Positions 28,490 to 34,045 of a stretch of DNA of 34,045 nucleotides are shown one piece after another. Every line of letters begins with the position of its first letter. The stretch's first letter is position 1. Made by a program: the position numbers and the translations under genes. The stretch comes from an uncultured Gemmatimonas sp. GTDB taxonomy: Bacteria > Gemmatimonadota > Gemmatimonadetes > Longimicrobiales > Longimicrobiaceae. A model generated the notes under the pieces. It saw only the letters and a list, made by a program, of their open reading frames with translations. It made no database searches and was not told the DNA's origin. Location: NCBI GenBank assembly GCA_964623785.1, contig CAZUVK010000013.1:1-34045 (forward strand). Direction: 5' to 3'.

Positions 28490-29389
28490 CTAGCGGGAGA
28501 CGAAGACGTCACGGGACGGAGCGTCCACGCCTTGCGCCACGCGCTCCAGCCACTCGGCGAGCCGCTTCTCGAGAAAGAGGCGGTCGGACTCGCGGGAGAA
28601 GGTATGGTCCGCGCCGGGGCGGATCTCGACCCGAAGGATACGCGAGAGCTCGGCGATCTCGGGGAACGCGTCGGCGATCTGGCGGCGGTAGCTGATGGCC
28701 TCGCGACTATGTCCGGTCAGGATGAAGAAAAGCTGAGTCCGCCTACTCACCAAGTCTTTGAGGGTCGCGACAGCTTGCTTCCGAGCTTCGACGAATATCT
28801 CCGGCGCTGGGGCGTGAGGTATCCCGCGGTTGCTTGCCTCGGCCACGGTCACCTGGCCAACCAGATCCAGCTTCTTCCGCCCGGAAAGGATACGCCAGGC
28901 GACCGATGGACGCAGTCCGCGTCCGAATCGACGGACTACCCGGATGACCTGGTGGAGGCGGGTCGAGAAGACGACGGTGGGATCGATCAACATCGCCGCG
29001 ACGACGCGCGGATCCGCTGCGGCGATAGCAAAGCTGTGATCGGCGCCCGAGCATAGACCGACCATGACGAACCGGTTCGCAATTCCCATGGCCTGCAGGC
29101 GATCGAAGGCTGCCCGAGTCCCGGCAAGCATTTGGTCACCTGGGGTCCCGGTGCCAACGGGGTCGCTGTCGCCGAGCCCCGGCAGGTCATAGCGCAGGCT
29201 GGTACGCCCATGTCTGGCGAGATGGCGCGCCAACCGCACGTGCAATCTGTTCGCACCCACACGGTGGATGATGCCAGTGTTCGTAAACACGACGGCAACG
29301 TCGCCGGGGGTGGAGTCCGGCGACATGGGGCCTGTTAGAATCCCCAGCAGTCGGTTCCCCGGTCCGAACTCGAATATGCATTCGTTCAT
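28490..29389 (-). CDS. Alpha/beta-fold protein resembling 'hydrolase 1, exosortase A system-associated'; GxCxG elbow
   Basis: 299 aa. VAVVFTNTGIIHRVGANRLHVRLARHLARHGRTSLRYDLPGLGDS and VMVGLCSGAD follow the remembered hydr1_PEP pattern (...YRvGshRqFv.lAR.LA..G...LRFD.RGmGDS...GLCDAA). ATGA overlap with the upstream gene. Confidence 0.65.
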   Translation of the reverse strand: MNECIFEFGPGNRLLGILTGPMSPDSTPGDVAVVFTNTGIIHRVGANRLHVRLARHLARHGRTSLRYDLPGLGDSDPVGTGTPGDQMLAGTRAAFDRLQAMGIANRFVMVGLCSGADHSFAIAAADPRVVAAMLIDPTVVFSTRLHQVIRVVRRFGRGLRPSVAWRILSGRKKLDLVGQVTVAEASNRGIPHAPAPEIFVEARKQAVATLKDLVSRRTQLFFILTGHSREAISYRRQIADAFPEIAELSRILRVEIRPGADHTFSRESDRLFLEKRLAEWLERVAQGVDAPSRDVFVSR

Positions 29390-30135
29390 GTCGCGCGCAG
29401 CCAGGCCATCAGGGAGCCTATTGCCCTGGATGGAACCATTCCGTTCCAGATAGAGTCATCTTCTTCCCATGCATGGGCGTCTTCCACTACCTGATGCTCG
29501 ATGCGGGTTAGGGCGTCGCTGAGGCGTGCGAAGTTGCGGCCGCCGTCAGCGTGAGTCTCCAACAGCAGCGCGCGATCCGCGGTAGAACCACGGTAATCCG
29601 CTGCGTCCACCGCTTCCATCTGCGCCACAAGCGATGCCGAGACAAGCCGTTGCCCAAACTCAACCGTCCCGTCGCGTCCCGTGAGCAACCCGGCGGAACT
29701 CGCTAATACCGCCCGAACCCATTCCTTTCCATCCACCACCGGATCCCAGAGAACCAACCTTCGGACATCGCGCCTTCCCGTCGCTGTTGCGGCGGCGACG
29801 CTCGCCCCGAGGCGGAGGCCCACCAGGTCGACCCGGGATCTGCCGCTCATCGCCTTTAGTTCGTCAATCGCCATCGCCGTATCGCCAATCCAGCGTGACA
29901 TGTCCGCGTCCGTTTCACTGCCCCAGGAATCGCCAGTTCCCGAGTAGTCGAAGCGCATGGCGTGAAAGCCTAGTTCGGCGAGGCGCCGGGATGCAACCCG
30001 CAGCGATCTGTGCGCATACTGATACTCCGATCCCCACGATGGGCAGAACAGAACGGCACCCGACCCGACACCGCGCGGCGAATGATAGTACCCGAAAAGT
30101 TGCTCCTCCGCCGTCCCAAAAAAGAATGCCGTCAT
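29386..30135 (-). CDS. Alpha/beta-fold protein resembling 'hydrolase 2, exosortase A system-associated'; GLRLG elbow
   Basis: 249 aa. LFGYYHSP...AVLFCPSWGSEYQYAHRSLRVASRRLAELGFHAMRFDYSGTGDS...VDLVGLRLGASVA...LVLWDPVVDGKEW follows the remembered hydr2_PEP pattern (GLRLGA, LWqPV.sGk). ATGA overlap with the NRPS stop. Confidence 0.65.
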   Translation of the reverse strand: MTAFFFGTAEEQLFGYYHSPRGVGSGAVLFCPSWGSEYQYAHRSLRVASRRLAELGFHAMRFDYSGTGDSWGSETDADMSRWIGDTAMAIDELKAMSGRSRVDLVGLRLGASVAAATATGRRDVRRLVLWDPVVDGKEWVRAVLASSAGLLTGRDGTVEFGQRLVSASLVAQMEAVDAADYRGSTADRALLLETHADGGRNFARLSDALTRIEHQVVEDAHAWEEDDSIWNGMVPSRAIGSLMAWLRAT

Positions 30136-33100: not shown

Positions 33101-33305
33101 CACCGACGTCCAGCGGCCCCTCGATATGGATGGGAAGGGAGATGCTGTATGCGCCGGAGGCGTCGGCACCCATCAGGGCAACGGCGAAGATCTCCCGCTG
33201 AGCCTCTGTCGAGGGTGCCTGATCGACTAGCTCGTCCCCGGCGAAAGGATCGAAGTCAACAGACTCATAACCCGCCTGACCATCGTACTGGGACATTGCC
33301 TTCAT
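30132..33305 (-). CDS. Single-module NRPS: condensation - adenylation - thiolation (C-A-T), no TE/R domain
   Basis: 1057 aa. C domain HHIVCDGWS (aa 158-166). A domain motifs [77 protein letters not shown]. T domain [13 protein letters not shown]. The protein ends 37 aa after the T-domain serine. Confidence 0.92.
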   Translation of the reverse strand: [1057 protein letters not shown]

Positions 33306-34045
33306 CCTTCCACACGAACGTATTTACCCGGTCGATCCGGGTCGGGTCGGAACCAGCCGGGGTTGCCATCGGGGCCACGGCCCAGTCGCGCGTCGGGGTA
33401 GGGAGGGGCGCCAAGCCCACCGCGCAGCACGGCCGCGCCCGGACGATCCCCGTTTCCGCCCGGCCTCGAGCCGTTGCCGCCCTGCTCACGGGGGAGCAAT
33501 CCCACATCGAGAAGCTCGGTAAGTGCGCCCCGGAATGCGTCCACCACGAAGTCAACGTCCGCGCTCGTATGGGCGGCCGTGAAGAACCAGGTGCGGCCCT
33601 CGAAGATGTGGATACCGCGTTCTCGAAGGAGCGCGAGAAAAACGCCGCCGACGGGCACCGGTACGGTGAAGTGGACCCGGAAGGCCGAGCTGAAACGCTG
33701 GAAGCCGATCGGTGCACCGAGTTCCCGGCAGACCGCCTGAAGCCGTTCCACGCACTGTTCAGCAAGAGCGGTCACCCGGGTCGGGAGCGCATCGCCTTCA
33801 TCCCGCAGGTGGGTCAGCGTAGCCTTCACGGCGGCAAGCGCCAGCGGGTGACGTACGAAGGTCCCCGCGAAATAGGTCATCCCCACGGCGGGAAAGGAGT
33901 CGTCGCCGTAGACCCAGGGGCCCCCGTCGAGGGCATCGAGGAATCTGGGTGAGCCGGAGACAAGGCCGATCGGGAGCCCGCCGCCCACGACCTTGCCGTA
34001 GGTGGCGATGTCGGCCTCGACACCGAAGTATCCCTGCGCGCCGCG
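33302..34045 (-). CDS. Class-III PLP aminotransferase (glutamate-1-semialdehyde-aminomutase-like), C-terminal part; 5' end off the right edge
   Basis: Hand translation from nt 34045 gives RGAQGYFGVEADIATYGKVVGGGLPIGLVSGSPRFLDAL... (GK-x-x-GGG-x-P-x-G, the PLP-lysine region of GSA-AM-like enzymes). The frame is open to the window edge. Its stop overlaps the NRPS ATG (ATGA at 33302-33305). It may be the terminal AMT domain of a larger synthase. Confidence 0.8.
   Translation of the reverse strand, partial: RGAQGYFGVEADIATYGKVVGGGLPIGLVSGSPRFLDALDGGPWVYGDDSFPAVGMTYFAGTFVRHPLALAAVKATLTHLRDEGDALPTRVTALAEQCVERLQAVCRELGAPIGFQRFSSAFRVHFTVPVPVGGVFLALLRERGIHIFEGRTWFFTAAHTSADVDFVVDAFRGALTELLDVGLLPREQGGNGSRPGGNGDRPGAAVLRGGLGAPPYPDARLGRGPDGNPGWFRPDPDRPGKYVRVEG

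Follow-up and report, generated by a model that had tools for sequence, protein, structure and literature searches.

How does a biosynthetic assembly line let go of its chain when it has no thioesterase (TE), and what is such a line doing inside a polysaccharide operon? Both questions are raised by a contig from an uncultured Gemmatimonas sp. (CAZUVK010000013.1). The window analysed here is the entire contig, 34045 nt, and at its right end four minus-strand genes are joined by ATGA start/stop overlaps at 33302-33305, 30132-30135 and 29386-29389, as seen in the open reading frame (ORF) coordinates and the sequence. They encode, in order, an aminotransferase (AMT) fragment, a nonribosomal peptide synthetase (NRPS) module made of condensation, adenylation and thiolation domains (C-A-T), and two alpha/beta-fold proteins, hydr2-like and hydr1-like (hereafter hydr2 and hydr1); a deacetylase-like gene and glycosyltransferases come next. 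Between the TAG stop of hydr1 and the ATG of the deacetylase-like gene at 28482 there are 7 nt (GGGAACC). The gene cluster runs off the right end at 34045, where the contig stops, so that the right flank is unreadable. There is good support for the two alpha/beta-fold proteins being a conserved device that replaces a TE, in a release or transfer role. The region itself appears to be the 3' end of a hybrid polyketide synthase (PKS)-NRPS line co-transcribed with XrtA-type polysaccharide genes; it is part of a best model whose chances, taken whole, we rate as even.

The NRPS module (30132-33305, minus strand, 1057 aa) was assigned from its Pfam domains, motifs and specificity code. Pfam places Condensation at residues 29-467, AMP-binding at 489-827, AMP-binding_C at 885-959 and PP-binding at 989-1048, and the core motifs are intact (HHIVCDG at 158, the A3, A4, A5, A7 and A8 cores, and GGHS at 1012). 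Pfam finds no TE or reductase (R) domain in the module, and the T domain ends at residue 1048 of 1057, which leaves no room for one. Adjacent to the module there is no PF00975 thioesterase; hydr1 and hydr2 match Hydrolase_4, Abhydrolase_6 and Abhydrolase_1. The A domain matches TIGR03098 generically, at 183.7 bits against a cut-off of 592. Its ten code residues were mapped on the GrsA sequence, a mapping that reproduces DAWTIAAICK, and the resulting code, DILQLGLIWK, is a glycine code. We compared it with related loci, given L-numbers here (P-numbers are cluster representatives of hydr2; both sets served for the comparison of contexts and fusions). The module right before hydr2 is of the Gly type (DILQxGxxWK or YK) in L045, L048, L061, L062, L063, L064 and L066, and of the Ser type (DVWHISLVDK) in L047, L054 and L065. 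Non-terminal A domains in L061, L062 and L064 have a common code of their own, DAMHVGLFSK or DAMHDGSFAK, which matches no assigned substrate.

Directly before the condensation domain lies the AMT fragment (33302-34045, minus strand, 247 aa), whose gene shares its last 4 nt with the beginning of the C-A-T gene. Pfam and NCBIfam profiles (TIGR00713 hemL, 66 bits; Aminotran_3, 27 bits) recognise about 130 aa of a class-III, glutamate-1-semialdehyde (GSA)-aminomutase-like aminotransferase with a linker/docking tail; it runs off the contig and covers just profile positions ~247-360, the C-terminal third of the models (Aminotran_3 positions 246-329). Its closest relatives (41-50% identity over residues 2-245) form the C-terminal ends of FAAL-ACP-KS-AT-ACP-AMT or KS-AT-ACP-AMT proteins (fatty acyl-AMP ligase, acyl carrier protein, ketosynthase and acyltransferase domains), and a scan of GTDB species-representative genomes with the fragment gave no relative above 50% identity. 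Because the AMT of these relatives is the C-terminus of such proteins, before C-A-T, the fragment is taken as the end of a larger PKS-type synthase, very probably a beta-amino fatty acid synthase of the mycosubtilin/iturin type. In L001, FAAL-ACP-KS-AT-ACP-AMT is followed by C-A-T-TE and a phosphopantetheinyl transferase (PPTase), the pair being absent and the line closing with a TE; L006 has KS-AT-ACP-AMT and then C-A-T-C-A-T. A FAAL-ACP-KS-AT-ACP-AMT protein is also encoded in L055 and in the Variovorax locus L067. Glycine code and AMT end together predict 3-amino-fatty-acyl-glycyl-S-T as the carrier-bound product. In these points the earlier note, made from the DNA alone, has held up well. 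The ATGA-coupled run of four genes agrees with coordinates and sequence at all three junctions. The AMT, read there as possibly the tail of a bigger synthase beyond the window, is the C-terminus of a synthase that precedes C-A-T in the relatives; the iturin/mycosubtilin-type start proposed from AMT followed by C-A-T is matched by the AMT standing directly before the condensation domain and by a full PKS in relatives. Pfam shows nothing after the T domain of the C-A-T module that was described as lacking thioesterase and reductase, and AMT fragment and C-A-T do occupy the place in which a ligase and an ACP were expected.

The first of the two alpha/beta-fold proteins to be considered, hydr1 (28490-29389, minus strand, 299 aa), has TIGR03100 (hydr1_PEP) as its best match, with 88.8 bits over residues 11-282, short of the curated cut-off of 168.45. 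Its predicted triad consists of Cys113 (in GLCSG), Asp136 and His262 (in DHTF). Cys113 and Asp136 are conserved in 120/120 homologues and His262 in 118/120; in the alignment with 9pjb_A, Cys113 falls on the catalytic Ser of its GLSMG, and the DHTF motif matches the DHTF of the same structure. In an AlphaFold2 (AF2) model (pLDDT 89.1, pTM 0.87), C113, D136 and H262 come after strands 106-112, 129-135 and 252-257, respectively, a geometry that fits the predicted triad. We predict that hydr1 is the catalytic subunit, a Cys acyl-enzyme with an acyl-transfer or thioesterase role.

Its partner hydr2 (29386-30135, minus strand, 249 aa) matches TIGR03101 (hydr2_PEP) best, with 94.2 bits over residues 3-143, and does not reach the curated cut-off of 202.75. 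Homologues of hydr2 were taken from a representative-library search (314 cluster representatives at E<=1e-30, 5390 at E<=1e-10) and from a metagenome scan. The nucleophile elbow is occupied by Arg108 (in GLRLG), and Arg is found there in 147 of the 153 representative domains and in 16/16 locus copies. Arg108 aligns with the Ser of GFSLG in the solved structure 9pic_A, and the AF2 model (pLDDT 94.5) puts R108 between strand 102-107 and helix 109-118; Ser stands at the elbow of neither protein, the residue being Cys113 in hydr1 and Arg108 in hydr2. Across the compared homologues there is no conserved His in the C-terminal part of hydr2. Because Arg replaces the nucleophile, hydr2 is apparently not a hydrolase, and we infer a non-catalytic partner that docks the carrier domain, its Arg possibly binding a phosphate or carboxylate. 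Neither protein has a signal peptide or transmembrane segment, so a transfer would be cytoplasmic. Foldseek and PDB sequence searches with the pair return generic esterases, lipases and peptidases only, and neither fold nor sequence searches of the PDB gave a structural match specific to TEs, PhaC or acyltransferases; a reading of the pair as a PhaC-like polymerase was dropped, since no PhaC-specific match came out of these searches.

Judged by these matches, the window pair belongs to a sister clade of TIGR03101/TIGR03100 that is found after TE-less NRPS/PKS lines in the relatives sampled. The earlier note had recognised in the two proteins the hydrolase 1/hydrolase 2 pair of exosortase-A loci and had named the TIGR03100 and TIGR03101 models as the check. 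These families are indeed the best matches and closest relatives of both proteins, but the scores lie far under the curated cut-offs, the window has no exosortase and the elbow of hydr2 holds an Arg. Within 20 kb of the annotated XrtA locus on Vibrio alfacsensis pYa108 (L073), the hydr1/hydr2 pair is absent; hits in Cupriavidus and Burkholderia arboris carry no annotation.

The argument that the pair replaces a TE comes from its genomic context. At all 28 related loci having both genes, hydr2 and hydr1 are adjacent, as separate genes in 26 (L045-L059, L060-L067, L072, L074, L076) and as a fusion in two (L069, L070). The metagenome scan with hydr2 gave 15 loci, with hydr1 after hydr2 in 15/15, and wherever upstream sequence exists, the pair comes after an NRPS T domain or a PKS-AMT. 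For ten hydr1 homologues of 35-70% identity (L060-L066, L072, L074, L076), the pair comes after an NRPS or PKS-NRPS gene in 10/10 contexts, and no cis TE occurs in any of the eight contexts with a characterised upstream gene. Counting by the carrier domain, hydr2-hydr1 follows a TE-less one in L045-48, L054, L055, L057, L060-67, L072, L074 and L076, the loci whose upstream gene was characterised; L063, for example, reads PPTase, C-A-T, hydr2, hydr1. This co-occurrence of the pair with NRPS/PKS carrier domains in the sampled relatives is what the earlier note had suggested looking for. Natural fusions place hydr2 straight after a T domain, as C-A-T-hydr2 (P0033, L061), A-T-hydr2 (P0121) and T-hydr2 (P0074, P0141), and in L061 hydr2 is the C-terminal part of a synthase that has three or more modules. 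Among the top 150 hydr2 representatives there are about 20 hydr2-hydr1 fusions, one double fusion and four T-domain fusions.

One locus without a C-A-T module, L055 (JADMIO012927337.1, 1565-11628), encodes a PPTase, FAAL-ACP-KS-AT-ACP-AMT (2506 aa), hydr2 and hydr1, so the pair can come directly after a beta-amino fatty acyl carrier with no amino acid module in between. Nearby, the locus also encodes DUF1996 and Big_2/Big_1 proteins. In the literature we found no published characterisation of the hydr1/hydr2 pair, of the function of TIGR03100/03101 or of an association with NRPSs; nothing on function for the set of exosortase with acyl-CoA ligase, ACP, hydrolase or decarboxylase; and, for exosortase together with nonribosomal peptide, only a link to N-acyl amino acid synthases.

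Where, then, does the chain go? Polysaccharide genes neighbour the NRPS-hydr2-hydr1 cassette not only in the window but also in four further loci (L074, L061, L062, L067). The closest relative, L074, has a hydr1 70% identical to that of the window, and after it, in this order, a deacetylase-like gene (45%) in the position that it has in the window, stp1 (65%) and stp2 (74%). Beside the cassette of L061 are a glycosyltransferase (GT), an ATP-grasp gene (54.5% identical to the window's), Wzy_C and several GT4s; beside that of L062 are GT4, GT2, an ATP-grasp gene (37.8% identical to the window's), DegT and an Exosortase_EpsH+EpsI gene, the last 7 kb from the pair. L067 is from a cultured betaproteobacterium, Variovorax paradoxus VAI-C (CP063167.1, 2393525-2421703; INQ48_42255-42275), and runs FAAL-ACP-KS-AT-ACP-AMT, C-A-T-C-T (A code DIAQWGVVWK), PPTase, hydr2, hydr1, after which the same strand carries Wza, Wzc, a priming transferase, GDP-fucose synthase, GTs, a flippase, WbuB and GalE. 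The earlier note took the pair as a marker of exosortase-A exopolysaccharide (EPS) loci: the layout of NRPS, pair and polysaccharide genes does recur in these four loci, but the pair is not specific to polysaccharide genes.

A different setting is seen with the hydr2-hydr1 fusions of 592-616 aa in Azospirillum sp. B510 (L069; pAB510e 192562-200148) and Mycetohabitans rhizoxinica (L070; pBRH01 705594-713592). Both loci have the order ACP, acyl-CoA dehydrogenase-like, amino acid--[ACP] ligase, DUF1839, GH2 (glycoside hydrolase family 2) and the fusion, which overlaps the GH2 gene and is translationally coupled to it, and which carries the motifs GxRxG and then GxCxG...DH. Ligases of this kind, which resemble aminoacyl-tRNA synthetases (aaRS; SerRS-like), charge carrier proteins with Gly or Ala; PMC9437257 gives their biological role as unknown.

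In the window, the gene after hydr1 encodes the deacetylase-like protein (27499-28482, minus strand, 327 aa from the ATG at 28482), which has 22 bits against Polysacc_deac_1 and shows no NCBIfam match, no PDB match and no similarity to the deacetylase of the Vibrio XrtA system. It is followed by a 189-nt gap with no terminator-like site on that strand. Then come, all on the minus strand, a GT4 (25927-27309; solid Pfam/NCBIfam match), a WecB UDP-GlcNAc 2-epimerase (24731-25930; 266 bits, above cut-off) and, assigned by Pfam/NCBIfam, a C-terminal-only GT fragment (24315-24734), an ATP-grasp ligase (ATPgrasp_Ter, 23158-24315) and an IS1380 transposase fragment (22550-23086). The block 22550-27309 has a lower GC content, ~0.59-0.60. 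Because it is missing from L074, where the deacetylase-like gene runs directly into stp1 and stp2, and because it is flanked by the insertion sequence (IS) fragment, it is probably an insertion. Of the operon that the earlier note saw stepping over 7 nt into a polysaccharide deacetylase and on to glycosyltransferases and an epimerase, the gap is real and GT4 and WecB are solid, whereas the deacetylase match is weak and sub-threshold and the block looks inserted.

Beyond the block lie an stp1-like glycosyltransferase (21339-22562, minus strand; TIGR03087 is the best match with 156.8 bits, below cut-off) and an stp2-like one (20212-21432, minus strand; TIGR03088, 182 bits, again the best match and below cut-off). 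The plus strand carries an ABC exporter (18408-20177), a FemAB-like GNAT (GCN5-related N-acetyltransferase; 17073-18341), both by Pfam/NCBIfam, and an stp3-like GT (15695-16987). Further to the left on the minus strand are an XrtA-type amidotransferase (9027-10970; 548 bits against a cut-off of 817), a PIG-L deacetylase (8069-8965; Pfam/NCBIfam) and a Wzy_C/PEP_O_lig_1-like protein (6690-8069). Five of these genes, those for the amidotransferase, PEP_O_lig_1, stp1, stp2 and stp3, have XrtA-associated families as their best matches (TIGR03108, 03097, 03087, 03088 and 04063), all of them sub-threshold. By its family matches, the window looks like a divergent XrtA-style EPS locus. No pyridoxal phosphate (PLP) decarboxylase was found among the window proteins.

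Our best model, which we consider evenly poised between right and wrong, is that a PKS-NRPS line makes a 3-aminoacyl-Gly-S-T, that the pair replaces the TE through an acyl-thioester on Cys113, and that the chain is transferred to a glycan intermediate or to water. Judging from the relatives, an off-contig FAAL-ACP-KS-AT-ACP-AMT protein would make a carrier-bound 3-amino fatty acyl chain. As domains and specificity code predict, C-A-T would then load glycine to give 3-amino-acyl-glycyl-S-T. In the absence of a TE, the two-protein alpha/beta-fold device would remove the chain, a step suggested by the conserved residues, the gene position and the natural fusions: the pseudo-hydrolase hydr2 would take the TE position and dock on the T domain and on hydr1, and hydr1 would accept the acyl chain on Cys113 as a thioester, with His262 and Asp136. 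Finally, hydr1 might hand the lipo-glycyl unit to an acceptor. Gene context points to a glycan in this last step. As acceptor we favour an amino or hydroxyl group of a lipid-linked sugar, an intermediate of the polysaccharide in the cytoplasm; it could be a sugar whose N-acetyl group has been removed by the neighbouring deacetylase-like or the PIG-L enzyme. The result would be a glycan or glycolipid bearing a lipo-aminoacyl group, with water as the main alternative acceptor.

If water is the only acceptor, the pair would work in trans as a thioesterase and set free 3-amino-fatty-acyl-glycine, which would serve as a surfactant, a signal or a membrane lipid; this alternative is possible but somewhat unlikely. 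The pair sits in the TE position, and for many of its relatives the surrounding cluster has no glycan genes; that genes for lipo-amino acids can lie beside exosortase/EPS genes has a precedent (Craig, Cherry & Brady 2011, as cited in PMC7293339 and PMC11511702). What speaks against hydrolysis is that, if simple, it does not usually involve a Cys nucleophile kept in every one of the 120 homologues, nor an obligatory partner subunit whose Arg is conserved; furthermore, operons that join the pair to glycan genes are found again in distant lineages, and GH2 is coupled to the pair in the setting of the amino acid:[carrier protein] ligases. Several further observations count against transfer to a glycan and the model around it. 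Most sampled relatives are housed in ordinary-looking NRPS/PKS clusters (L047, L048, L055, L060, L063-L066, L072, L076), and no glycan genes lie within 10 kb of the pair in L047, L055, L060, L063, L064, L066 and L076, so that glycan attachment is not to be taken as the pair's universal function and its intrinsic activity may be plain release. Additional PKS genes stand behind the pair in L048 and L072, so it may not always act at the end of a line. No exosortase gene (Exosortase_EpsH) is matched in the 34-kb contig, the deacetylase assignment is sub-threshold (Polysacc_deac_1, 22 against 23.1 bits), and the IS fragment and truncated GT mean that the operon is rearranged. The PKS part is reconstructed from relatives and would lie outside the visible sequence, the role of Asp136 and the contact between hydr1 and hydr2 are predictions, and we found no biochemical data in the literature for any member of the pair.

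Attachment to the glycan might instead take two steps, the pair hydrolysing the thioester and the ATP-grasp enzyme (23158-24315) ligating the freed lipo-amino acid, either through the Gly carboxylate to a de-N-acetylated amino sugar or through the beta-amine to the carboxylate of a uronic acid. ATP-grasp homologues beside the cassette in the window, L061 and L062, and the two deacetylase-type genes of the locus, are compatible with such a route, but L074 and the Variovorax L067 are without ATP-grasp, that of the window sits in the inserted-looking block by the IS fragment, and the ATP-grasp ligases of glycan loci commonly attach small amines or amino acids that have nothing to do with NRPS products; we regard it as quite improbable. 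That the pair does proof-reading like a type II TE, or is a housekeeping pair or a set of ordinary esterases while release happens elsewhere, is very improbable. The missed TIGR03100/03101 cut-offs and the purely generic esterases and lipases from Foldseek would fit this, whereas the ATGA coupling in the window, the adjacency at 28/28 loci, the fusion to T domains and the lack of any nucleophile in hydr2 do not. Moreover, a canonical type II TE is encoded alongside the pair in both L048 and L072, so the pair is not simply the editing thioesterase. Least credible of all is a cyclising release, in which the beta-amine of the chain would resolve the Cys-acyl of hydr1 into a seven-membered cyclo(3-aminoacyl-Gly) lactam. 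The predicted chain has a free beta-amine from the AMT domain, and Cys-active release enzymes of other NRPS systems form strained lactones and lactams, but the pair is also found after the AMT-less lines L047, L048 and L061-L065, so that a mechanism dependent on the beta-amine is not general. Finally, the best model could be widened: the pair might be a general transferase of aminoacyl or peptidyl groups from carrier proteins to glycans or glycolipids, uniting the XrtA EPS, amino acid:[carrier protein] ligase and TE-less NRPS/PKS systems, and this extension we think unlikely.

Apart from the cassette, the window contains other features. The genes for FkbH (13333-15084, minus strand; TIGR01686, 217 bits), an ACP-like ORF containing AWDSLAHVTLLAALAEEFG (within 13089-13454, minus strand) and a GNAT-like protein of 371 aa (11894-13009, minus strand) form a second carrier-protein system in the locus (11894-15084, minus strand), with a glyoxalase/methylmalonyl-CoA-epimerase-like gene (11361-11798, minus strand) as the next one; this suggests a glyceryl- or lactyl-type glycan decoration. 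A repeat of ~220 nt with 73-82% identity is present at 11133-11355 and 15280-15509, in minus-strand 5' leaders; it precedes the genes for the XrtA-type amidotransferase (start 10970) and FkbH (start 15084), and Rfam returns nothing for it at E<=1. The repeat is possibly a cis-regulatory leader, not described so far, that two operons of the locus have in common. On the plus strand, two tandem c-di-GMP-I aptamers (RF01051; 2172-2260 and 2428-2520; 59.4 and 61.1 bits against a gathering score of 35) lie upstream of a Big_2/Big_1 surface-protein gene, listed as ORF 2367-4748. The real start of this gene is probably near 2574, giving a lipoprotein-like signal (MMNRRTTFLG...), and no PEP-CTERM signal is found in the Big_2 protein. 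The placement of the aptamers suggests c-di-GMP control of a matrix protein beside the EPS locus. ORF 446-1756, Arg-rich and with no family match, is probably not a gene.

If the pair does release the chains of TE-less NRPS/PKS lines, it would be a widespread new option for doing so, with a Cys acyl-enzyme and a pseudo-enzyme partner, and genome mining would be affected, as present tools would rate clusters that end in the pair as incomplete. The pair occurs in three settings, namely exosortase-type EPS loci, amino acid:[carrier protein] ligase/GH2 clusters and NRPS-EPS operon fusions in at least two phyla. It makes testable both the role of the XrtA ligase/ACP/hydrolase genes and the fate of the aminoacyl-carrier proteins produced by aaRS homologues, and V. 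paradoxus VAI-C, being cultured, offers a direct genetic handle on the same layout. A lipopeptide-decorated exopolysaccharide, if true, would give biofilm matrices a component of a new kind. Should the general transferase reading be correct, one mechanism would explain three orphan systems (the XrtA genes, the aaRS-like ligases and the TE-less NRPS/PKS lines), and 3-amino-fatty-acyl-glycine on exopolysaccharide might act as a lipid anchor or as an amine for exosortase-type sorting.

Among known systems, the XrtA hydrolase 2/1 pair (TIGR03101/TIGR03100) is the nearest to ours. These are the best-scoring families for both window proteins, the two genes are adjacent there too, a carrier-bound acyl group is the presumed substrate, the window is rich in relatives of XrtA families, and the L062 cassette stands beside an exosortase. 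The XrtA pair travels with the acyl-CoA ligase ligase_PEP_1, an ACP and a PLP decarboxylase, whereas the window has neither ligase_PEP_1, nor a stand-alone ACP, nor a PLP decarboxylase beside the pair, where the PKS-NRPS line is found instead; its scores are far below the curated cut-offs and it has no exosortase. With mycosubtilin and iturin synthesis (MycA/ItuA; fatty acyl ligase-ACP-KS-AT-ACP-AMT, then C-A-T), the window shares an AMT directly before C-A-T and a predicted beta-amino fatty acyl-aminoacyl chain, but it would add one amino acid (Gly) rather than build a heptapeptide, has no TE or macrocyclisation and is part of a glycan operon. SyrC and CmaE are Cys-active alpha/beta-fold aminoacyl shuttles of NRPS lines, compared here by description. 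Like these and the Cys-active TEs, hydr1 has an alpha/beta fold with an elbow Cys and is predicted to turn a T-domain thioester into a Cys thioester; unlike hydr1, which has an Arg-elbow pseudo-hydrolase as its partner, they work singly and either hand the group on to a further T domain or cyclise it. The amino acid:[carrier protein] ligase clusters are close in having a hydr2-hydr1 fusion, a Gly/Ala thioester on a carrier and a GH2 gene nearby, and differ in that an aaRS homologue does the loading instead of an NRPS, that there is no fatty chain and that the hydrolase halves are fused.

For the acceptor side, Nod factor synthesis offers a comparison, with NodB as deacetylase, NodA as N-acyltransferase and NodF as acyl carrier protein. 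There, a carrier-bound acyl group goes to a sugar after de-N-acetylation of the CE4 type, and here a deacetylase-like gene lies 7 nt downstream. In Dlt D-alanylation (DltA/DltC/DltB/DltD), carrier-bound D-Ala is moved onto a sugar polymer (PMC12930378). The transferases of these two systems, NodA and DltB/DltD, are however unrelated to the pair, and their donors are simple acyl groups or D-Ala, not an NRPS product. N-acyl amino acid synthases have been linked to PEP-CTERM/exosortase loci (Craig, Cherry & Brady 2011, as cited in PMC7293339 and PMC11511702) and thus also tie lipo-amino acid biosynthesis genetically to exosortase-type EPS loci, but they are single GNAT-type enzymes that use acyl-ACP and free amino acids, with no NRPS, AMT or hydrolase pair. 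Known already, then, are trans-acting alpha/beta-fold release enzymes and XrtA-associated hydrolases; in the literature we found no account of a Cys enzyme and an Arg pseudo-enzyme that form an NRPS-coupled pair, nor of the repeated joining of this pair to EPS operons.

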